Shown: positions 2,797 through 63,122 of the stretch, one piece after another
Layout of the letters: each line of letters opens with the position of its first letter
Position numbering within the stretch: position 1 is the first letter of the stretch
NCBI GenBank assembly: GCA_002774875.1
Contig: PCYM01000005.1
Span: forward strand, 1,979 to 65,978
DNA from: Candidatus Uhrbacteria bacterium CG10_big_fil_rev_8_21_14_0_10_50_16
GTDB lineage: Bacteria; Patescibacteriota; Patescibacteriia; UBA9934; UBA11717
Direction of reading: 5' to 3'
Length of the DNA stretch: 64,000 nt
Notes under the pieces: model-generated
The model's database searches: none
What the model was told of the DNA's origin: nothing
Seen by the model: the letters and a program-made list of their open reading frames with translations, nothing else
Made by a program: the position numbers and the translations under genes

Positions 2797-2840
2797 ACGC
2801 GGTATAAAACCTCCCGTTGGCAACATTTCTTATACTTCCT

Positions 2841-5800
2841 ATGAAATACAATCACAAAGATATTGACGCAAAATGGCAGAAGCGATGGATGAGTGAGGGC
2901 GTGTTTACTATGGACGATGCGTCGGAGAAGGAAAAGTTTTACTGCTTGGTGGAGTTTCCTTATCCCTCTGGTGCGGGTCTGCACATGGGTCACCCGCGCA
3001 GTTACACCGCGCTCGATGTGTTGTCGCGCAAGCGTCGTATGGAGGGGTACAACGTGCTTTACCCAATCGGTTGGGACGCGTTTGGTCTGCCAACGGAGAA
3101 CTACGCCATCAAAACAGGTCGTAAGCCGCAAGAAGTAACGACGGAGAACATCAACACGTTTAGACGACAGTTGCAGTCGCTTGGAATCTCTTTTGATTGG
3201 TCGCGAGAGGTCAATACCACGGACCCGGCGTATTACAAGTGGACGCAGTGGATGTTTTTGGAATTTTTTAAGGCGGGGATGGCGTACAAAAAAGCCATGG
3301 CGATTAACTGGTGTGTGCGTTGTAAAATTGGTCTTGCAAACGAGGAGGTTGTAAACGGCGTATGCGAACGCTGTGGCGGCGAAGTTGAAAAACGTGATAA
3401 AGAGCAATGGATGATTGCCATAACCCGGTATGCAGACCGGCTGATTGATGATTTGAAGACCGTGGATTATTTGCCAAAGATTGCCAAGCAACAAGAAGAC
3501 TGGATTGGCAGGTCCGAGGGTGCCGAGGTGACGTTTGCATTAGAGGGAGATGTGAGTGAATATAATTTTTTGGGTCTTCATGCGTTTTGTGATGATTCGA
3601 CATCCGCTTTTTGGCCCTGGTTGCAAAAAGAACTCTCAACTCGCGGAGGGACGCTGACGGTGTTAGATTTGCCAAATTCAAGCGAGCCAACTATTGCCAA
3701 ACAGGTGCAGTACATAAGGGAGAACTATACCTTTAATGAAAAGACGATCATTCTTACGCACTCGCTTGGGGGGGTTGCGGCAATGAAGTTACTTCCAGAA
3801 TTAGATCAATCTATTAAGAAGTTAATTCTCATTGCACCGCCCACCAATCCATCTCGGTTTATGGATAAAAAGCCTCGACCGGCGTTAGACGCTTGTTGCG
3901 ATTGGTCGTTTGATTATCAGGCTATTAAAGATAAAGCGGGATCAATTATTGTTATTGCCGATGAGCAAGATCACATTGTTCCTTTGTCACAACCAAAACA
4001 GCTTGCAGATCAGTTGCACGCAGAATTTTTCATCTTCAAATCAAACACGCCTCATTTTAATGCTGTTGAGGAGCCGGTTGTACTACGTTCGATTTTGCCA
4101 CACGTAACTGTCTTCACTACGAGGCCGGATACGCTATTTGGGGCGACGTATGTGGTGTTGGCGCCGGAGCATCCGTTGATTGCAGAACTTGCGAATAGGA
4201 TTCAAAACAAAAAAGATGTGGAAGCGTATCAACAAGTCACAAAAGAAAAGACAGAGATAGAACGTGGAGATGCGACCAAGGAAAAAACAGGCGTGATGTT
4301 GAAGGGTGTGCAGGTGATTCATCCTGTCACAGGTGAAGTATTGCCCGTGTGGGTCGCAGATTACGTGCTAATGAGTTATGGCACGGGGGCGATTATGGCT
4401 GTGCCTGCACACGATGTACGTGATTATCAATTTGCAAAAACATATGGTTTGCCAATTCATCAAGTTATAGAAGCACCGATCGTTTCTGTTCCAAGTGGTA
4501 TTGTGCATCAAACAGCAGGGCAACTTACAGAACCGATTGTTGTTGATGTCGCCTGTTATACGGGGGAAGGTGTATGTGTCAACTCAGACTTTTTGAATGG
4601 GTTGGAAATTGAGGCGGCAAAAGCAAAAATGATTGAATGGTTAGAGAAGGAGGGGAAGGGCGTGCGGAAGATTAACTATCGATTGCGCGACTGGGTGTTT
4701 AGTCGCCAGCGATATTGGGGTGAGCCGATTCCATTGGTGCATTGTGATACCTGTTCGCCGGAGACGGATGGATGGGTGGCGGTGCCGATTGAACAACTGC
4801 CTGTTACGTTACCGGATGTAGAGAAATATGAGCCGACGGATAGTGGAGAATCACCTTTGGCAACGATCACGGATTGGGTCAACACCACGTGTCCGGAATG
4901 TGGCGGTCCTGCAACACGCGAGACAGACACCATGCCAAACTGGGCGGGAAGCAGTTGGTACTTTTTGCGCTACGTCGATGCCCATAATCCGGATGCCTTT
5001 GCCGATCCACAAAAACTCAAAAGATGGATGCCTGTTGATTGGTATAATGGTGGTATGGAGCACACGACGTTGCACTTGTTATATTCGCGTTTTTGGAACA
5101 AATTTTTGTTCGATCGCGGACACGTGCCAACGTCCGAGCCGTACGCAAAACGCACAAGCCATGGATTGATCCTCGCCGAAGATGGAACCAAGATGAGCAA
5201 GTCAAAAGGCAATGTGGTGAATCCGGATGAACTCGTGGAGCAATTCGGCGCAGATGCGTTGCGATTGTTGGAGTTGTTTATTGGACCGTTTGCAGAGCCG
5301 GCGCCCTACAGCCACGCGGGGATGGTGGGAACCCGACGGTTTTTGGAGAAGGTAATGGATCTACCGGGCAAGGTTGTCGAGACGGAATCGGAGGAGGTGA
5401 CGCGCGCGTTACATCAACTCATTCAAAAAGTTGGTGAGGATATTGAGACACAGGGGTACAACACGGCCGTGAGTGCGTTGATGATTTTTGTGAATGCCGT
5501 TGGTGACGGTGGAGGGCTCACAAGGCAGACGTTGCAAGCGTTTGCGTGTGTGTTATCGCCGTTTGCGCCGCATATTGCCGAGGAAGTGTGGAGCCAGGTG
5601 GGGGATGGGTTGGCGATGCAACAACCATGGCCGGCGTTTGATGCGGAACTGGCAAAAGACGTCGTGGTAACGTTGGGCGTGCAGGTGAATGGCAAAGTGC
5701 GCGGGCAGGTGACGTTGGCCGTGGATGCAACGGAGGCGCAGGCGCGTGCGGCGGCCGAGGCGGATGAACATGTACAAACCTATTTGCAGGGAAAGACGGT

Positions 5801-5852
5801 TAAGAAGTTTGTGTATGTACCTGGACGCATTGTGAGCTTTGTGGTGGTATAG
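2841..5852 (+). CDS. leuS: Leucyl-tRNA synthetase with a ~190-aa alpha/beta serine-hydrolase domain inserted at the catalytic-core/CP1 junction
   Basis: HMGH and KMSKS motifs; Zn knuckle CVRC...CERC; CP1 editing motifs TTRPDT and GTGAIMAVPAHD. Extra segment between GAEVTFALEG and VTVFTTRPDT contains THSLGG and IADEQDH...H. Start chosen at MKYNHKDIDAKWQ. Confidence 0.9.
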   Translation: MKYNHKDIDAKWQKRWMSEGVFTMDDASEKEKFYCLVEFPYPSGAGLHMGHPRSYTALDVLSRKRRMEGYNVLYPIGWDAFGLPTENYAIKTGRKPQEVTTENINTFRRQLQSLGISFDWSREVNTTDPAYYKWTQWMFLEFFKAGMAYKKAMAINWCVRCKIGLANEEVVNGVCERCGGEVEKRDKEQWMIAITRYADRLIDDLKTVDYLPKIAKQQEDWIGRSEGAEVTFALEGDVSEYNFLGLHAFCDDSTSAFWPWLQKELSTRGGTLTVLDLPNSSEPTIAKQVQYIRENYTFNEKTIILTHSLGGVAAMKLLPELDQSIKKLILIAPPTNPSRFMDKKPRPALDACCDWSFDYQAIKDKAGSIIVIADEQDHIVPLSQPKQLADQLHAEFFIFKSNTPHFNAVEEPVVLRSILPHVTVFTTRPDTLFGATYVVLAPEHPLIAELANRIQNKKDVEAYQQVTKEKTEIERGDATKEKTGVMLKGVQVIHPVTGEVLPVWVADYVLMSYGTGAIMAVPAHDVRDYQFAKTYGLPIHQVIEAPIVSVPSGIVHQTAGQLTEPIVVDVACYTGEGVCVNSDFLNGLEIEAAKAKMIEWLEKEGKGVRKINYRLRDWVFSRQRYWGEPIPLVHCDTCSPETDGWVAVPIEQLPVTLPDVEKYEPTDSGESPLATITDWVNTTCPECGGPATRETDTMPNWAGSSWYFLRYVDAHNPDAFADPQKLKRWMPVDWYNGGMEHTTLHLLYSRFWNKFLFDRGHVPTSEPYAKRTSHGLILAEDGTKMSKSKGNVVNPDELVEQFGADALRLLELFIGPFAEPAPYSHAGMVGTRRFLEKVMDLPGKVVETESEEVTRALHQLIQKVGEDIETQGYNTAVSALMIFVNAVGDGGGLTRQTLQAFACVLSPFAPHIAEEVWSQVGDGLAMQQPWPAFDAELAKDVVVTLGVQVNGKVRGQVTLAVDATEAQARAAAEADEHVQTYLQGKTVKKFVYVPGRIVSFVVV

Positions 5853-46882: not shown

Positions 46883-49800
46883 ATGGCAAAACGAACAAAA
46901 ATGACACGCGCCGATAAAGAGGCGCTTGGGGCAGAACCGGGCGATCCTAGTGTTGATGTTCTGTCAGACGAGAAGAAGAAGGAGCAATTAGAGCGGGCGC
47001 AAGATCAACGATTACATACGTTGTTACACGCGGTTCGATTACATAAGCGTCTTGGCACCCTCCTGGAGAAGATTCCTGTAAACAAGCGCTCTCCCGGGCA
47101 GGTTGCACATGACGTAAATGCACAATTGAGGGAACTGGTCCCCTTGTTTGAGACGTCTGGGATTGTGACAGCAAGCATGAGTCAACAAGATATCGACGCA
47201 CTTCGTCTCTCGCTACTCGTGATCCCAGAGGGAAAGTCTTCTGTTGATATTGTCCGTGAAGGTCATCAAAAATTAGAAAAAGCATTAAATGCTATTCGGT
47301 CTGCAGCAAAAATTGCACCGGAGGATCGTGATATTGTTTCAGCAAACCATTTGGAAAATAAGGTTGGTCTATTGCGTCGCACGCGAGGGATTGAGCGTGG
47401 TATTGGACGATTGCAAACGGAGTGGCGTGCCCGTGGACCGAAGGCTCCCAAGAATGCCGCTGAGGCGGCAGCGGTCCTTAAGCCATTTATTGAAAGTTCT
47501 GCAGAGGTACTGACGATTGCCTCCCAGGGTGATCCAAAGGAAGTGAAGGTATTTGTGGATCAATTGCTTGCGGAGTTGCAAAAGGTTTCATCTCTTCGCG
47601 AAGCGTATGTCTTAACGCGCGAAAAATTACAAGGGGTCCACGATCTGGTTTTGGAGAATTTGTCGGGTGATCATGTTCGTGAGCAACAGCTCCTGCAAGG
47701 TGTGTTGGACGAGGAGGAACAATGGCATCAACGCGCGCAACATCCAGGGAAAGAGGCGAAAGTTGCATGGGATGCGGCGTACAAGCAGGCACGAGAAGAG
47801 GCAAGGGCGGCAATTGATGCGCATAAGAGTGCACCAACGACTGCGGAGGATACGGTGGATGTGGATGCAGCCGTGGCAACTGAAACGGTTGACGGAGACT
47901 CCGCGATTGTCGAGGACGTGCCTGTCATGGAAGAGATACCGGAAGAGGTAAAGGTTGAAACAAGACCGTCGGCGGATTTGGCGGAAAAGACACGTCGGCT
48001 CAAAGAGTGGGATACACTTACGCGACAATTTGCCTCGGCGCAGATGTTTTTGTTGAACCCGGAGTTTGCCACGGATGCCGATATCTCGCAGGCGGATCGT
48101 GCGCGAACAGTAAACGATATTGTTCGACGTGCGCTTATTACCTCCGAACACACAGGTGTTTCCACGGCTGATTTGGATATGCTTCGCGGATTGTTGGTCA
48201 AGGACACGGATGTAAACGGGAAGACGTGGCAAAAGCAATTACACACGATTGAGAAAGCCTTGCAGCAGTTGCGAGGACGATCATTGAATCAATTGAAAGT
48301 GACCGTGGAAGAGGAACAGCGGACGCAGGAGGCCTTGGATGTGGCACGTGTGTCGGCGCCTGTTGAGGAGGTTGTCGAAGAACCGGCCGCTTTGGATGCG
48401 ATTGAACCTGTTACCGAGCAAACGTTTGCGCAGTATTGGGAAGAGTTGCAGGAGGAAGATTCGTCCTATGCAAATGCGTTAGGGATGGATGGGGCGTTGA
48501 ATTTGTGGGAAGAGACCGCGGGGGCGGTGGATGCAGAGTCTACGGAAGAACCACTGGATTCAGATCCATTAGAACATGCAGAGAATACATCAGATGTGCT
48601 GCCATGGAGCGATGAGGATGTCACGGAAGAAGTGGATCAGATTGGTGCCAAGCAGTTGGAGAATATTTGGGAAGGTAGGGAAGTGTTTGGGCCTGTTGAG
48701 CGTCCAGTGTCGGGTCCTATACGATCGGAACCGAAGGAAGAGGAAGTTAACATGGAAGATACATTAGATGTGCCGCCGGTGGAGGAGACACTTTATATTG
48801 GATCGCCAGATGATGCTCCGGAGGTATTGAGCGAAAATGTTGTACAGGCGTTTGAATCGTTGTTTAAAAAGCGTTATGGAGAGTCTGCGCCGGATGGAGT
48901 GGTTGTAACACGGGGAGAACGACGTGGGCAAATGGTGGTGTCGGGCGCACGGTTGGATTATATTTCCAATGAAAAATTGAGTTACAAGAGTGATGAGGAT
49001 CGGGTCGTTATCTCTAAGGACGGGTGTTCTTTTATGGTGATCGATGCCATGGGTGGCATGGGGAATGGGGATATTGTGGCGGACGTGCTGGCGGCGCACG
49101 TTGCCGCAGGGGAGGATGAGGATTTATATCAATCGATTGTTGCAGCACAACGGGAGCTTTTGAATATGCAACGTGATTACAAAATTGACGCGAGAAGTGG
49201 CGCCTGTTTTGCGTCGGGGGAGCTTACATTACAAGGAGACGACGTGGTGTTGGAGACCATGCATATGGGAGACGTACGTTTGGTGGTGCGTGGCGCCGAT
49301 GGAACGGTTCGGTTTGTGTCTCGCGATTTCTCTCATGTTCAGGATCTGGTCGATAACGGAATTATTGAGGCGGATCGCGCGCTCTATCACCCAGATCGTA
49401 ATAAGGTGACGAGCGCCGTGTCTGCGGATTGTGTTCCAAAAAAAGATGGGTTGATTTATGACCGAGAAACGAAGCGAATTATTGCGGCGGTACAAGATCT
49501 TGTAGATCGTGGGTTGAAGCCGGAGACGGCAACGGCATTGTTGGAAAAAGCGTGGGAGGAGATGCAAAAAGGACTTCACATGACGGATGCTATTGGTCGC
49601 GCAACGATTGTTTTGCAAGAGGGTGACGAGGTGTTTGCGCTCACGGATGGGTATACGGACAATTTTACAACGGAGGAGTTGTTGGATCTTTTGGATACGC
49701 ATGATGGAGATTTGCAGATTCTTGATATTCTTACAACTGCACGTGTAGAGGCGTACGAGAAAGGGAATGTTGGGTCATCGGTGTATCGACAAGTACATCC

Positions 49801-50632
49801 AACATTCGAAGATGGCTATAAAACACTACCCAAGGATGACGATCGCGGTTTGATGCGACTTAAGGTTCGTAATCTGTCGGATTTAAAGGGGTATCTAAAA
49901 CAAATGAAGAGAAAAACAGGAACACCGCAACCAAACGGATCTCCTTCTGATCCAAATCCTCAGACAGAATTGCCGGTGTTGTATACGGGGGAAAGAGATG
50001 AGGAGACAGAAATACTACCTCCAACGTCGATTCACGATCGTGAGAGGGATCGTTTTACGGATGTGATAGACGTTGAAGAGGAGGATGGATTGGAAAAAGG
50101 ACGAGAAATGAGACAATTGCCACCTCCACCGCCAGATGTGTTTGATCTGCACGAAGCGGCCCGAGGTGGGCGTGATGCAGAACGTATGGTGGCGCTCGAT
50201 GCAGCGCGACGGGCGGCGATGGAGGAAGAAGAGGAGGAGGAAGAAGCGGGTGAGGGACTTGCGGCGGCAGCCGTGTTGGCCGCGGCGGCGGCAGCACGTG
50301 CGCGGGCCGGAGATGGGGGAGGTGGTGCCGGATCTCCACCGGGTCTTGGAAGAAGAGCGTTAGATGCGTTTAGTGGTTCCTGGGGATCGCTCTTAGCAGA
50401 CACAGCGCTCATTAACTGGGGCGGAGGATTGCTTAAATGGGGTACAAATCTTCCCGGGCGTGCGATGGACGTGGGCGACGAGATTTTGGATCGTATACAA
50501 GATTTCTTCCACGGGTTGTCCTTTAGCTGGTTGCCGTTTAGCTCTAAAAAGACGTTTAAGGACCGTGGAAAGCTCGCCATGACGGCAAAAGAGAAAGATG
50601 ACTTTGACGCTTCAAAGAAAAAAGCTGCGTAA
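46883..50632 (+). CDS. Giant (1249-aa) protein: acidic/coiled-coil N-terminal half, PP2C-type Ser/Thr phosphatase domain, then Pro/Glu/Ala-rich low-complexity tail
   Basis: PP2C motifs FMVIDAMGGMGNGD, GDVRLVV, ALTDGYTDNFT; the rest is E/D/A-rich. Confidence 0.8.
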   Translation: MAKRTKMTRADKEALGAEPGDPSVDVLSDEKKKEQLERAQDQRLHTLLHAVRLHKRLGTLLEKIPVNKRSPGQVAHDVNAQLRELVPLFETSGIVTASMSQQDIDALRLSLLVIPEGKSSVDIVREGHQKLEKALNAIRSAAKIAPEDRDIVSANHLENKVGLLRRTRGIERGIGRLQTEWRARGPKAPKNAAEAAAVLKPFIESSAEVLTIASQGDPKEVKVFVDQLLAELQKVSSLREAYVLTREKLQGVHDLVLENLSGDHVREQQLLQGVLDEEEQWHQRAQHPGKEAKVAWDAAYKQAREEARAAIDAHKSAPTTAEDTVDVDAAVATETVDGDSAIVEDVPVMEEIPEEVKVETRPSADLAEKTRRLKEWDTLTRQFASAQMFLLNPEFATDADISQADRARTVNDIVRRALITSEHTGVSTADLDMLRGLLVKDTDVNGKTWQKQLHTIEKALQQLRGRSLNQLKVTVEEEQRTQEALDVARVSAPVEEVVEEPAALDAIEPVTEQTFAQYWEELQEEDSSYANALGMDGALNLWEETAGAVDAESTEEPLDSDPLEHAENTSDVLPWSDEDVTEEVDQIGAKQLENIWEGREVFGPVERPVSGPIRSEPKEEEVNMEDTLDVPPVEETLYIGSPDDAPEVLSENVVQAFESLFKKRYGESAPDGVVVTRGERRGQMVVSGARLDYISNEKLSYKSDEDRVVISKDGCSFMVIDAMGGMGNGDIVADVLAAHVAAGEDEDLYQSIVAAQRELLNMQRDYKIDARSGACFASGELTLQGDDVVLETMHMGDVRLVVRGADGTVRFVSRDFSHVQDLVDNGIIEADRALYHPDRNKVTSAVSADCVPKKDGLIYDRETKRIIAAVQDLVDRGLKPETATALLEKAWEEMQKGLHMTDAIGRATIVLQEGDEVFALTDGYTDNFTTEELLDLLDTHDGDLQILDILTTARVEAYEKGNVGSSVYRQVHPTFEDGYKTLPKDDDRGLMRLKVRNLSDLKGYLKQMKRKTGTPQPNGSPSDPNPQTELPVLYTGERDEETEILPPTSIHDRERDRFTDVIDVEEEDGLEKGREMRQLPPPPPDVFDLHEAARGGRDAERMVALDAARRAAMEEEEEEEEAGEGLAAAAVLAAAAAARARAGDGGGGAGSPPGLGRRALDAFSGSWGSLLADTALINWGGGLLKWGTNLPGRAMDVGDEILDRIQDFFHGLSFSWLPFSSKKTFKDRGKLAMTAKEKDDFDASKKKAA

Positions 50633-50648
50633 TTACGCAGATTTTTTG
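50618..50648. terminator. Bidirectional terminator: palindrome ctgcgtaattacgcag containing the stop codons of both convergent genes
   Basis: A-run, 16-bp perfect palindrome, T-run. Confidence 0.6.
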
Positions 50649-60034: not shown

Positions 60035-61048
60035 ATGGATAATACGGAATTGAATAACGAAATCATTATTTATACTGGCGACGGTGGTCAGCCGATTATT
60101 CAGGTACGAATTGAAGGGGAGACCGTGTGGCTTAGTCAAACGCAATTGGCAGAATTATTCGACACGACGAAACAAAACGTCAGCCTTCATATTCAGAATA
60201 TTTACGAAGAAGGCGAGTTAACAAAAGAAGCAACTGTCAAGGAATACTTGATTGTTCAAAAAGAGGGGAATAGGGAGGTTTCACGACGGATTGAACATTA
60301 TAGTCTCGATCTTATTATTTCTCTTGGCTATCGCGTTAGATCGAAGATTGCTACACATTTTCGCCAATGGGCCACGGCACGACTTCGTGAGTATATCGTG
60401 AAAGGCTTTACAATGGACGATGAACGGTTAAAAGGAAATGGCGGCGGACAGTATTGGAAAGAACTTCTTGATCGCATTCGCGATATTCGTTCCAGCGAAA
60501 AGATGCTTTATCGTCAAGTGCTTGATTTGTATGCGACGAGTATTGATTATGATCCGAAAAGTACTGAGTCAATAATATTTTTTAAAGTCGTGCAAAACAA
60601 ATTGCATTACGCGACGAACCAACACACGGCCGCAGAGACCATCCATGAACGCGCGGATGCAGAAAAAGATTTCATGGGACTTACAACGTTTGCAGGAGCA
60701 ATGCCTGTATTATCAGAAGTTGGGACGGCTAAAAATTATCTGACAGAAGATGAACTTTTCCGTTTAAATCGTCTCGTTTCAGCATTTTTTGATCTTGCAG
60801 AAATTAAAGCACAAGAGCATACAGCAATGCACATGGCCGATTGGGTTGCAGAGCTTGATAAATTTGCAGAGAACTTTGGTAAGGGTGTGCTCACCGATGC
60901 GGGTTCCGTTAGTCACGAACAAGCGAAAAAGAAAGTAGCAGTAGAATATCGTAAGTATCAGGCGAAGACCCTTTCCCCAGTTGAAGAAGCGTATTTGGAG
61001 AGTGTGAAGGCGTTAGGAAAGGAAGTGGAGAAGCGAGTAAAAAAGTAA
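60035..61048 (+). CDS. rhuM: RhuM-family (virulence-associated, Fic/DOC-neighbourhood) protein
   Basis: N-terminus IIIYTGDGGQPIIQVRIEGETVWLSQTQLAELFDTTKQNVSLHIQNIYEEGEL matches the RhuM family pattern; AT-rich gene. Confidence 0.75.
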   Translation: MDNTELNNEIIIYTGDGGQPIIQVRIEGETVWLSQTQLAELFDTTKQNVSLHIQNIYEEGELTKEATVKEYLIVQKEGNREVSRRIEHYSLDLIISLGYRVRSKIATHFRQWATARLREYIVKGFTMDDERLKGNGGGQYWKELLDRIRDIRSSEKMLYRQVLDLYATSIDYDPKSTESIIFFKVVQNKLHYATNQHTAAETIHERADAEKDFMGLTTFAGAMPVLSEVGTAKNYLTEDELFRLNRLVSAFFDLAEIKAQEHTAMHMADWVAELDKFAENFGKGVLTDAGSVSHEQAKKKVAVEYRKYQAKTLSPVEEAYLESVKALGKEVEKRVKK

Positions 61049-61119
61049 TTCGTCGGTACGTACATCGACTAATTGTTGAGCTCCACACCCCATTATTACA
61101 TTGCGTCTGGAGGGGTTGA

Positions 61120-61144
61120 GTGGTGTTTGTGATAAGATTTGATT
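61120..61144. repeat. 25-bp direct repeat, right copy
   Basis: Identical to 59966-59990; the preceding hairpin is degenerate compared with the hisS terminator. Confidence 0.8.
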
Positions 61145-61186
61145 GATGTATTTCAAAATCCTATTTTGTTCTAAGAACATTGTCCT

Positions 61187-61534
61187 ATGAAAACACTGTC
61201 AGATTTAACAACAAAGATTGTAGCTTTTAGGGATGCTCGAGATTGGAAACAGTTTCACAACCCAAAAGATTTAGCACTATCTTTAGTGTTGGAGGCCGCA
61301 GAGGTTATGGAACATTTTCAATGGAAAAATTCAGAAGAAATGGAGAAATATGTCCAAACGAATAAATCTGATATTGGTGATGAACTAGCGGATGTTTTGT
61401 ATTGGGTTTTACTAATGAGCCACGATCTCGATATTGATATTTTAGACGCACTTGAAAAGAAAATATTAAAAAATGAAGCAAAGTACCCGGTCGATAAAGC
61501 AAAAGGGCTGCACACAAAATACACGGAGCTTTAA
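61187..61534 (+). CDS. MazG-like nucleotide pyrophosphohydrolase (small, single domain)
   Basis: EVMEHFQWK...ELADVLYWVLLMSHDLDID pattern (EExxE...DxxD metal-binding helices) typical of the MazG/YpjD family. Confidence 0.7.
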   Translation: MKTLSDLTTKIVAFRDARDWKQFHNPKDLALSLVLEAAEVMEHFQWKNSEEMEKYVQTNKSDIGDELADVLYWVLLMSHDLDIDILDALEKKILKNEAKYPVDKAKGLHTKYTEL

Positions 61535-61535
61535 T

Positions 61536-63122
61536 ATGCAGGCCATAAAGACATTTGCTTTTTCTGATAGCGGCTTTGAAACAATTAAAAAAGATCATTA
61601 TGGTTTAGATTGGCCGGTTGTTTATTTTATTGAAAATGGGAAGGAGGCTTATATTGGAGAGACAATCCACCTTTATTATAGGAGCAAGGAGCATTATAAA
61701 AATAAGGAGAGACAAAGATTGCATCAAGTTCATGTTGTGACAGATGAGGAATATAACAAGTCTGCAGCACTTGATATTGAATCTTGGTTAATTCAATACA
61801 TTGCAGCAGATGGTATTTTTAAATTACAAAATGGCAATGCAGGGTTAAAGAATCATGAATATTTTGATCGGGAAAAATATTTATCAAAATTTGAGAATGG
61901 CATTTGGCCTAAGCTAGTAAAGATGGGTCTTGCGAAGAATAATCTAGTCCAATTAAAAAATAGCGACCTTTTTAAGTATTCACCTTACAAAACGTTATCT
62001 GCAGACCAAATAGCATTTGTAGAGGCTCTTGTGGATGAAATAGCTCAAGAGAAATTAACGTTTGTGGTGCGTGGAAGACCGGGGACCGGCAAGACTATCG
62101 TGGCAGTATATTTAATGAAATATTTGAAGGAAGATAGTCGCACGTCGCATCTAAAAGTGGGCTTGGTTATTCCGATGACTTCATTGCGTAAAACGTTAAA
62201 GAATGTTTTTAAAAATATTGTGGGGCTGTCACCTTCAATGGTGATTGGTCCGGCTGATACAGTAAAAGCAGAGTATGATTTGTTGTTAGTTGATGAGACG
62301 CATAGGCTGCGACGTAGAAAAAATATTACTAACTATAAGGCTTTTGATGACATAAATCGTCATTTTGGATTTGAGAATACCGGCACCGAACTAGATTGGA
62401 TTCAAGCATCTGCTATGAAACAAGTTTACTTTTATGATGAGCAGCAGAGTGTCAGACCTTCTGACATTAGACCTTCTCAAATTGCACGTCTGCAGGCAAA
62501 GGAGTTCACGTTGCAGTCTCAAATGAGAGTAAGAGGCGGAGAGAGATATCTGGCGTTTATTGATAGTTTATTTGGTGACGGAGACATTCGTTCTGTAGAT
62601 TTTCCTCAATATGATCTCAGGATGTATGAAGATATTTCTTTGATGGTAAAAGAAATAAAGGAAAAAGATGAAGCCGTGGGTCTCGCGCGTATGGTTGCTG
62701 GATACGCTTGGTCGTGGAAGACGAGGAATTTAAAACCTCACGATGAAGGATTTGATATAGAAATAGATGGGGAAAAATTGCGTTGGAATTCTACAAATGC
62801 TGATTGGGTTAACTCGGAAAATGCAGTGAACGAAGTTGGATGTATTCATACTGTACAGGGGTATGATCTCAATTATGTTGGGGTGATTATTGGTCCGGAA
62901 CTAAAATGGGTAGACGGTAAGTTTGTACTTGATAGGTCGAGCTACTTTGATAAGAATGGACATAGAGGGGTTGAAAACGAAGAGGAGATTATTGGGTATG
63001 TGTTGAATATATATAAAACCTTACTCACTCGTGGAATTATCGGTACATTTATCTATGTGGTGGATCCCGGATTACGCAATTATCTAAAAAATATTTTAAA
63101 TCAAGCCCCAAAACCTCAATAA
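61536..63122 (+). CDS. GIY-YIG nuclease domain fused to an SF1-like P-loop helicase (DUF2075-like)
   Basis: N-terminus VVYFIENGKEAYIGETIHLYYRSKEH (GIY...YIG...R..E); Walker A GRPGTGKT; Walker B LLLVDETHRL; C-terminal helicase motif CIHTVQGYDLNYVGVIIG. Confidence 0.75.
   Translation: MQAIKTFAFSDSGFETIKKDHYGLDWPVVYFIENGKEAYIGETIHLYYRSKEHYKNKERQRLHQVHVVTDEEYNKSAALDIESWLIQYIAADGIFKLQNGNAGLKNHEYFDREKYLSKFENGIWPKLVKMGLAKNNLVQLKNSDLFKYSPYKTLSADQIAFVEALVDEIAQEKLTFVVRGRPGTGKTIVAVYLMKYLKEDSRTSHLKVGLVIPMTSLRKTLKNVFKNIVGLSPSMVIGPADTVKAEYDLLLVDETHRLRRRKNITNYKAFDDINRHFGFENTGTELDWIQASAMKQVYFYDEQQSVRPSDIRPSQIARLQAKEFTLQSQMRVRGGERYLAFIDSLFGDGDIRSVDFPQYDLRMYEDISLMVKEIKEKDEAVGLARMVAGYAWSWKTRNLKPHDEGFDIEIDGEKLRWNSTNADWVNSENAVNEVGCIHTVQGYDLNYVGVIIGPELKWVDGKFVLDRSSYFDKNGHRGVENEEEIIGYVLNIYKTLLTRGIIGTFIYVVDPGLRNYLKNILNQAPKPQ

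Follow-up and report, generated by a model that had tools for sequence, protein, structure and literature searches.

A 64,000-nucleotide stretch of contig PCYM01000005.1 from Candidatus Uhrbacteria bacterium CG10_big_fil_rev_8_21_14_0_10_50_16 (hereafter the window) carries, among housekeeping genes that include parA, parB, rel and topA, an open reading frame (ORF) designated X, which encodes a 1249-residue protein with a divergent protein phosphatase domain of the PPM/PP2C superfamily. The carrier protein belongs to a previously undescribed family that is known from six closely related Uhrbacteria genomes and is defined by its N-terminal and C-terminal modules, the PP2C domain being an optional and movable insert.

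An intact gene and a family of six

Gene X is a single uninterrupted ORF on the plus strand (46883..50632), with 1249 codons from ATG plus the stop codon in the ORF list of the window. Its product is identical to PIR47588.1 / UniRef100_A0A2H0RM63 of Candidatus Uhrbacteria bacterium CG10_big_fil_rev, annotated as hypothetical at NCBI and as "PPM-type phosphatase domain-containing protein" in UniRef, and the same product was called on five contigs from several assemblies, one of them an independent Logan re-assembly. An ortholog of 1260 residues (P0002, isolate UBA11717) is 55% identical and colinear from end to end, with many synonymous differences. Between these two genes substitutions are found far more often at codon position 3 than at position 1, and more often at position 1 than at position 2, in every region; the rates in the poly-Glu/poly-Ala stretch are 0.15, 0.11 and 0.67 for positions 1, 2 and 3. 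Four further full-length relatives of 999-1089 residues have both termini in common with the 1249-residue protein. X is a real, intact gene: fusion of two or more genes by an assembly or sequencing error is refuted by the recurrence on five contigs, the colinear ortholog, the codon-position pattern and the termini common to the relatives, and with nothing in its favour has virtually no chance of being correct. The initial annotation, which had seen one ORF without frameshift, was right on this point, as it was in regarding the minus-strand mirror ORF (Table 1) as spurious, since that frame is not open in the locus of the ortholog (L001), where the longest antisense open stretch is 117 residues compared with 198 in the window, and since the substitutions fit the plus frame. 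X is transcribed alone, divergent from rel, and between rel and X no plus-strand promoter or terminator signal rose above background in a scan of the intergenic region.

The size of the family rests on an exhaustive profile search with residues 1-655 against 1.84 billion representatives, in which four other clusters were found (five other proteins when P0002 is counted), all of 999-1260 residues: P0010 (1014 residues, E = 6e-38), P0011 (999 residues), P0012 (1041 residues) and P0013 (1089 residues, E = 1.7e-7). All six proteins, including the one from the window (P0001), are singleton clusters among ~15 billion sequences. A full-length word-indexed search returned the protein itself and one ortholog, its 8000 candidates probably having been swamped by poly-Glu and poly-Ala words, and a search of genome contigs for related loci found just the P0002 genome. 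A word search with the PP2C domain by itself listed ordinary PP2Cs but not the source protein, and a profile of the modules conserved in the six members listed nothing, its own source proteins included; neither outcome bears on the size of the family. Patterns for the PP2C domain and the C-terminal tail had no relatives in Joint Genome Institute (JGI) metagenome contigs, nor had the tail any in viral contigs. Phage relatives were not detected in PHROG, by tblastn in 50,697 phage records or among viral contigs.

When the members were compared by alignment and hidden Markov model (HMM) mapping, the N-terminal (N) module, a second helical (R) module, the acidic run with its Ala/Gly stretch and the C-terminal tail were common to all six. 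The PP2C domain is present in three (P0001, P0002 and P0013), in the last of which it precedes the R module; no remnant of it was found in P0010, P0011 or P0012, even by unfiltered searches. These proteins are thus likely to be scaffolds with optional cargo. At the place of the PP2C domain, residues 732-789 of P0011 (locus L005, 8001-11000) resemble an FtsK-gamma-like winged helix (Pfam E = 5.3e-6, 26.5 bits against a gathering threshold (GA) of 30.6; PHROG FtsK/SpoIIE-like, 1.6e-4). This candidate was not built upon because it falls under the Pfam cut-off and has no support from PDB sequences by phmmer. Nothing in PDB or Pfam matches the centre of P0012.

Modules of the protein and its PP2C domain

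With a net charge of -87 and an isoelectric point of 4.7 the protein is strongly acidic, above all in two linkers (309-365 and 471-669), where Asp plus Glu make up 27-28% of the residues. The motif strings quoted in the initial annotation were all found in the protein (FMVIDAMGGMGNGD at 717-730, GDVRLVV at 796-802, HPDRNKV at 836-842 and ALTDGYTDNFT at 919-929), as were its tail runs (PPPPP at 1080-1084, eight Glu at 1114-1121, poly-Ala at 1127-1130 and 1133-1138, four Gly at 1145-1148). Its description of the first ~650 residues as low in complexity and coiled coil did not hold: Shannon entropy per 100-residue block is 3.7-3.9 bits there, equal to that of the PP2C domain, the sole drop being at residues 1101-1200 (3.37 bits), and AlphaFold2 (AF2) gives compact helical bundles at residues 30-316 and 364-470. 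The PP2C domain is accordingly not embedded in low-complexity or coiled-coil sequence; its flanks are conserved folded modules of their own small family, into which the domain is optionally inserted.

All six members begin with a short basic, Lys/Arg-rich segment. The N module follows, and AF2 modelling from the six-sequence alignment gives an all-alpha bundle at residues 30-316 with a predicted local distance difference test (pLDDT) score of 86-96. Linker 1 varies in length among the orthologs, as seen from alignment indels. Mapping of the members places the R module at about 364-490. In an hhalign comparison N1 and R matched over 76 columns (E = 4.7e-5, probability 68%); R probably arose long ago by duplication of the first half of the N module. 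The resemblance is between 47972-48292 (residues ~395-470) and 47090-47400 (residues ~70-165), with moderate profile-profile support. P0010 has a further weak R-like copy at residues 719-787 and P0013 one at residues 801-880, and no internal repeat was found by BLAST self-comparison of the 1249-residue protein. Linker 2 contains a block, FAQYWEE...DGALNLWE (residues 507-553, 48401-48541), that is conserved in four of the six members. The flanks of the PP2C domain have no match in Pfam, PDB sequences, PHROG or PADLOC. The bundles resemble the helical-bundle rods of talin, vinculin, alpha-catenin and FAT/p130Cas at 3-15% identity over ~100 residues, designed helical bundles score equally well, and the likeness is that of a generic common fold, not homology.

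Conservation is highest in the C-terminal region. Its slowest piece, the helix, Glu run and Ala/Gly stretch that precede the tail (Table 1), is 79% identical to the ortholog, with 0.18 non-synonymous substitutions per non-synonymous site (dN). The tail itself carries a Trp/Gly-rich amphipathic helix, an N-x-P-G-R/K motif (N-L-P-G-R here), an F-x-W motif (FSW here), a block reading K-x-x-KDRGKLxMxAxEK across the members (KTFKDRGKLxMTAxEK here) and a Lys-rich end; it has no Pfam match. The C-terminal region also holds the most hydrophobic 19-residue window of each whole member, with a Kyte-Doolittle mean of 1.29-1.70, located in the Ala/Gly segment in five members and further on, in the tail helix, in P0012 (1.48). 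By hydropathy, the window protein is hydrophilic over its first 100 residues, with no signal-peptide h-region, and none of its 19-residue windows reaches the Kyte-Doolittle threshold for a transmembrane (TM) segment. A tripartite C-terminal sorting signal was not found either, the hydrophobic stretch being followed by ~100 conserved residues.

Residues 670-1009 almost certainly adopt the PP2C fold. With the single sequence, phmmer against PDB sequences detected PppA (6JKV, 2.1e-8) and PstP (1.6e-3), and a profile of the three orthologs that carry the domain matched PppA (2.7e-14), PstP (4.8e-11), Stp1 (5e-9) and tPphA (3e-7). AF2 modelling of residues 636-1249, from an input alignment that contained ordinary PP2Cs, gave a PP2C core with pLDDT 75-92. 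A Foldseek search with this model returned PstP (1TXO) first, with E = 3.5e-12 and a template modelling (TM) score of 0.79 on the target, and the top 23 matches were all bacterial PPM phosphatases; the Legionella proteins Lem3 and SidD were among weaker matches (E ~1e-6 to 2e-5, TM score 0.34-0.41). The genuine PPM/PP2C domain proposed in the initial annotation is thereby confirmed.

Catalytic residues were assigned by MAFFT alignment with seven ordinary PP2Cs of 240-320 residues, and invariance was judged over P0001, P0002 and P0013. D706, D721 and D922 line up with the invariant Asp residues of the seven ordinary enzymes. E705/D706, D721, D797, D922 and DDD985-987 are all invariant, although the PP2C domain of P0013 is just 39% identical. 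KDDDR (984-988) is likewise invariant in the three proteins, and in the AF2 model the last core beta-strand (residues 988-995, model 353-360, pLDDT 80-93) comes directly after it. In a 2025 survey of bacterial PP2Cs, conserved Asp residues were described in motifs 1, 2, 8 and 11 and in motif 5, the last of which serves a third metal (PMC12088040). The metal site of the domain is predicted to be intact, its motif 11 being assigned by the model. The two helices of the insertion beside the substrate-gating flap are modelled at residues 856-875 and 880-898, and this insertion is the fastest-evolving piece of the domain (dN 0.76 for residues 851-905).

Table 1. Window coordinates of the modules, motifs and insertions of gene X and of the ORF opposite to it
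Feature	Residues	Coordinates	Strand	Basis or remark
Short basic hydrophilic N-terminus, MAKRTKMTRADKE...	1-24	46883..46954	+	Sequence, hydropathy, pLDDT ~50; no signal peptide
N module, folded all-alpha tandem helical bundles	25-308	46955..47806	+	Family-defining
Acidic disordered linker 1	309-363	47807..47971	+	28% Asp plus Glu; pLDDT < 50 at 320-362; dN 0.52
R module, second helical bundle	364-470	47972..48292	+	AF2, pLDDT 85-93
Acidic linker 2	471-669	48293..48889	+	27% Asp plus Glu, 5.5% Lys plus Arg
Divergent PPM/PP2C phosphatase domain	670-1009	48890..49909	+	phmmer, three-sequence profile, AF2, Foldseek
Motif 1, E705-D706 (SDEDR)	705-706	48995..49000	+	PP2C alignment; invariant in the three PP2C-bearing orthologs
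Motif 2, D721-A-M-G-G725, metal-bridging Asp	721-725	49043..49057	+	Alignment, ortholog invariance
Motif 5, G796-D797-V-R799, third-metal Asp	796-799	49268..49279	+	Aligns with GDSR; invariant
Two-helix insertion of ~50 residues beside flap	856-905	49448..49597	+	Gap in all seven ordinary PP2Cs
Motif 8, D922-G923 (ALTDGYTDN)	922-923	49646..49651	+	Alignment, ortholog invariance, profile
Low-confidence insertion before motif 11	954-984	49742..49834	+	pLDDT < 50; probably misled the MAFFT pairing
Motif 11 (predicted), D985-D986-D987, "DD" type	985-987	49835..49843	+	AF2 and KDDDR invariance
Pro/acidic-rich variable linker, including PPPPP	1010-1090	49910..50152	+	22% Pro plus Gly; pLDDT < 50; dN 0.46
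Helix (AERMVALDAARRAA), eight Glu, Ala/Gly-rich weakly hydrophobic segment (1125-1141), Gly run		50153..50335	+	Position kept in 6/6 members
C-terminal tail module	1152-1249	50336..50629	+	Family-defining, in 6/6 members; dN 0.21
Spurious antisense "mirror" ORF, 182 residues		50032..50580	-	Opposite the GC-rich Ala/Glu/Gly-coding stretch; ORF list

Genomic context and other features of the window

In all six genomes the gene stands at one position (parA-parB-rel-[X]-topA) of a ~19-kb syntenic block (scpA-scpB-...-parA-parB-rel(-)-[X](+)-topA(-)-dprA-pth-der-lcp), where X is a single-copy positional ortholog; no paralogs were found. No secretion-system, chaperone or immunity genes lie near X. 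The stop codon of X abuts that of the convergent topA (50630-50635), with zero intergenic bases and no terminator, and the same stop-to-stop abutment is seen in the distant orthologous loci L005 (11000/11001) and L007 (11126/11127).

Between the window and L001, identity is 94% for ParA, 88% for ParB, 92% for Rel, 92% for TopA and 72% for DprA, compared with 55% for X. Against the other four genomes it is 74-89% for ParA, ParB, Rel and TopA and 57-66% for DprA, and X is 27-35% identical over less than half its length. The proportion of synonymous differences (pS) is saturated at ~0.7 for all genes, and the ratio dN/dS is therefore uninterpretable; dN, and the proportion of non-synonymous differences (pN) compared with pS, were used in its place. 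For the window and L001, dN is 0.335 for X, 0.05-0.07 for ParA, ParB, Rel and TopA, and 0.21 for DprA, so that X exceeds the first four ~5-7 times. Within X, dN ranges from 0.18-0.21 in the C-terminal region through 0.46-0.52 in linkers to its maximum in the flap insertion, and in every region pN is far below pS, no region having evident positive selection at this divergence. X is a constrained yet fast-evolving, module-swapping gene of an otherwise frozen block.

Elsewhere in the window, the gene for a 1011-residue leucyl-tRNA synthetase (2817-5852, plus strand) has an apparent extra stretch at residues 263-416, between the editing domain and the first half of the catalytic domain, that is like a serine hydrolase or alpha/beta-hydrolase (PF06821, E = 3.7e-10 at residues 263-416; PF00561, 7.8e-7); such an insertion is unusual for this enzyme. 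Directly after hisS lies a low-GC islet (60035-63122, plus strand; GC 0.385-0.43 compared with ~0.49 elsewhere) coding for a RhuM-family protein (PF13310, 1e-104; PADLOC candidate defence family PDC-S05, 2e-141) and a helicase of Schlafen-group-3/DUF2075 type (PF09848, 4e-60; weak Nhi and AbiO matches); it is probably a defence-like islet of horizontal origin. The tRNA cluster at 41099-41531 consists of tRNA-Leu(CAA) on the minus strand and then two tandem tRNA-Met(CAT) genes on the plus strand 54 nt apart, which are probably the initiator and the elongator, or a tRNA-Ile2 precursor. Between this cluster and parA, the ORFs 41614-42768 (plus strand, 384 residues) and 42822-43436 (minus strand, 204 residues) have no Pfam match at E <= 0.001.

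Proposed function and comparison with known systems

The explanation that we favour, with modest confidence, is that X encodes a clade-specific cytoplasmic multi-module scaffold with an exchangeable centre, occupied here by a Ser/Thr phosphatase, and possibly tethered to the membrane by its C-terminus. The exchangeable central module sits between the N-terminal bundles and the C-terminal region, to which the acidic disordered linkers join it, and the helical bundles would provide protein-docking surfaces. The PP2C domain, which is probably active, would be an Mn2+/Mg2+-dependent phospho-Ser/Thr phosphatase that owes its choice of substrate to the flap insertion and to its placement on the scaffold. 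The C-terminal Ala/Gly-rich and Trp/Gly-rich helices may serve as a tether or for assembly, with the inner membrane face as the most likely site; the tether itself is a tentative proposal, somewhat less likely than not. The protein might work in the manner of tethered PP2Cs such as PstP and SpoIIE. The phosphatase would then be cargo, with the core function of the family lying elsewhere.

A number of results weigh against this explanation. Three of the six orthologs do without a PP2C domain, and where it is present its profile scores are below the cut-offs: PF13672 (PP2C_2) reaches E = 0.21 and 11.6 bits against a GA of 24 on the window protein (no match on P0002, 10.4 bits on P0013), the NCBIfam Stp1 equivalog NF033484 reaches 41.6 bits against a cut-off of 230 (E = 1e-10), and PF00481 and PF07228 do not match the 1249-residue protein at all. 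The PP2C motifs that the initial annotation called clear are thus a real homology by phmmer, profile and Foldseek searches, without passing Pfam or NCBIfam cut-offs. No Hanks-kinase motif ([HY]RD[LIVMF]K..N) was found in ORFs of at least 200 residues in the 64-kb window and eight related loci. Since the Stp1 score is far under its cut-off, no kinase is nearby and the domain has two insertions, it is a member of the PPM/PP2C superfamily outside the Stp1/PstP equivalog group. The position of the motif-1 Arg is taken by Tyr701 (Ser in P0002, His in P0013), with Lys, Lys and Arg in the three proteins one residue on (Lys702 here), and that of the His after DGxGG by Met726 (Ala in P0002, Glu in P0013); without the Arg, which contacts phosphate, and the His, activity could be low or directed to a non-protein substrate. 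MAFFT places G961-N962 at the canonical "DN" spacing of motif 11, and the assignment of DDD985-987 comes from AF2 with a nine-sequence alignment that included the ordinary PP2Cs. As to the tether, P0013 is the one member to pass a Kyte-Doolittle value of 1.6, the maximum of the window protein being at the low end of the family range (1.29), and the C-terminal tail is modelled at pLDDT < 50. Finally, a function read from synteny with parAB, scpAB and topA was rejected: the whole ~19-kb block is kept by recent descent, and because it is conserved among close relatives, linkage to parAB and topA says little on function.

Several of the same observations (the replaced Arg and His, Gly961 in the MAFFT position of the motif-11 Asp, the two insertions, the sub-threshold scores and the absence of the domain from three orthologs) would be expected if the protein were a purely structural scaffold whose PP2C domain is a dead pseudophosphatase, its fold serving to bind phospho-proteins or partners and the function residing in the N and C modules. 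We regard this as unlikely. The Asp residues of motifs 1, 2, 5 and 8 and the KDDDR sequence have stayed invariant at 39% identity, and without a metal site there is no easy explanation for that. In the model DDD comes directly ahead of the last core strand, as in active enzymes, and on this placement and the KDDDR invariance loss of the motif-11 Asp was set aside in favour of a predicted motif 11 at DDD985-987. In groups IV and V of the bacterial PP2Cs motif 11 reads "DD" instead of "DN" and conservation of the motif-1 Arg is lost (PMC12088040), and in the ordinary PP2C P0004 DGMGG is followed by Met, so that neither the Arg nor the His is universal. Moreover, eighteen Arg-13 variants of tPphA kept phosphopeptide activity, though reduced (PMC3375153).

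A surface or effector function was suggested in the initial annotation, and X could be a secreted or surface-exposed host-interaction effector, exported by a non-classical route, with the PP2C fold acting on host targets as in Lem3 and SidD. Bacteria of the candidate phyla radiation (CPR) are host-dependent, X is by far the fastest-evolving gene of a conserved block (55% compared with 88-94% identity), its central module is swapped or lost among close relatives, its linkers are acidic and disordered, and Lem3 and SidD are among its structural matches. These matches are much weaker in both structure and sequence than those to canonical bacterial Ser/Thr phosphatases. The N-terminus is hydrophilic, with neither signal peptide nor hydrophobic segment, the C-terminus has no tripartite sorting signal, and the surroundings are a housekeeping block in which no secretion-system, chaperone or immunity gene was found and the stop codon abuts topA. 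X is moreover single-copy, with pN far below pS throughout. These results weaken the effector idea to an unlikely one, although fast evolution and module swapping are compatible with it.

The constant neighbourhood of scpA, scpB, parA, parB, topA and dprA suggests another role, that of a chromosome-segregation or cell-pole organiser working with ParA/ParB in the manner of HubP, PopZ or Scy, in which the basic N-terminal peptide, Lys/Arg-rich in all members, would contact ParA and the central module, a PP2C domain or a DNA-binding winged helix, would be regulatory. The FtsK-gamma-like winged helix of P0011 in place of PP2C would suit such a role, and in its size, acidity, helical modules and conserved C-terminal assembly or anchor region the protein resembles known polar organisers. 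We consider it highly unlikely. The gene order of the block is kept along with unrelated genes (pth, der, lcp and hisS) among neighbours that are 74-94% identical, which points to recent descent; the winged-helix match is the sub-threshold one described above; X is transcribed by itself; and it has no homology to known organisers.

Two other layouts were considered. That of a polymorphic toxin (LXG/type VII secretion, Rhs or CdiA) does not agree with a variable module in the centre and a C-terminus that is the most conserved part; there is no room for an immunity gene before the convergent topA, and no toxin match in PADLOC or Pfam. For a phage tape-measure or structural protein there is no phage homology, and the context is housekeeping.

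The scaffold explanation can be extended, in a form that we judge improbable though less so than the alternatives above, to the proposal that the six proteins are a new clade-restricted "cargo-swapping" scaffold, in which a helical rod and a C-terminal anchor bracket a slot whose modules (the PP2C phosphatase, a winged helix, domains of other kinds) are inserted, moved or deleted over a very short evolutionary distance. If that were true, cargo-swapping in a frozen core block would point to a role in contact with the host or with phages, or to a lineage-specific cell-cycle organiser tied to ParAB, and either way the protein would attach to the membrane or be exported in a manner not yet described.

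With six members, an uncultured organism and a function that is inferred, X should be taken as a lead and not as a breakthrough. It offers a concrete way into Ser/Thr phospho-signalling in CPR/Patescibacteria, on which there has been next to no work; no literature was found that joins Uhrbacteria or Patescibacteria with PP2C enzymes or that describes the carrier architecture. Both the substrate-facing parts of the domain (the flap insertion and the absent Arg and His) and the carrier protein are unlike those of any characterised PP2C, and a hypervariable gene among housekeeping genes of 74-94% identity is a candidate for lineage-specific biology of bacteria with very small genomes, such as host interaction, the envelope or cell-cycle control.

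Of 3,573 bacterial PP2Cs surveyed, 90% of those annotated had the catalytic domain only, and the common partner domains were zf-ribbon, DZR, Pkinase, TPR, cNMP, FHA, MerR and PASTA (PMC12088040). None of these partners is present in the 1249-residue protein and the carrier architecture is absent from those surveyed, which bears out the remark in the initial annotation that its size and architecture are unusual for a housekeeping phosphatase.

The best sequence match is PppA of P. aeruginosa (PDB 6JKV), with which the domain has motifs 1-8 and the RD(H/F)SxVQxLVDxG flap in common. PppA is a stand-alone enzyme of 260 residues that is encoded beside the kinase PpkA in a type VI secretion cluster; in contrast, the domain described here is 340 residues long, with a 50-residue helical insertion, a 24-31-residue insertion before the predicted motif 11 and "DDD" there for "DN", lacks the motif-1 Arg and the DGxGG His, and is buried in a 1249-residue protein with no kinase nearby. 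The best structural match is PstP of M. tuberculosis (PDB 1TXO/2CM1), which has a site of the three-metal type including the motif-5 Asp, as is predicted for the domain here. Its catalytic domain is followed by a segment that anchors it in the membrane, and this provides the working analogy for the protein. PstP has a clear single TM helix and an extracellular domain, shares its operon with pknA/pknB and division genes, and has no large N-terminal region, whereas the C-terminal hydrophobic segments here are just borderline and the N-terminal 670 residues have no PstP counterpart. Lem3 and SidD, which remove phosphocholine or AMP and are Dot/Icm substrates, are examples of a PP2C fold with large insertions used on host targets by a host-dependent bacterium; the protein here matches them much less well than the canonical Ser/Thr phosphatases and lacks a secretion context.

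The closest likeness in concept, localisation modules joined to a PP2C domain, is to SpoIIE of B. subtilis, a very large protein in which a scaffold of several domains determines localisation and ends catalytically in a PP2C domain (PMC3517971). The X protein has no PF07228 match, a reversed order of modules with the anchor candidate at the C-terminus, and no similarity to SpoIIE outside the PP2C core. In SpoIIE, ten TM helices at the N-terminus are followed by a central region that interacts with FtsZ and, at the C-terminus, by a PP2C domain of the SpoIIE/RsbU type (PF07228). The PPM-type label of the X protein was already present in UniRef/UniProt, and what is new is an undescribed, clade-restricted scaffold that carries this known catalytic fold.

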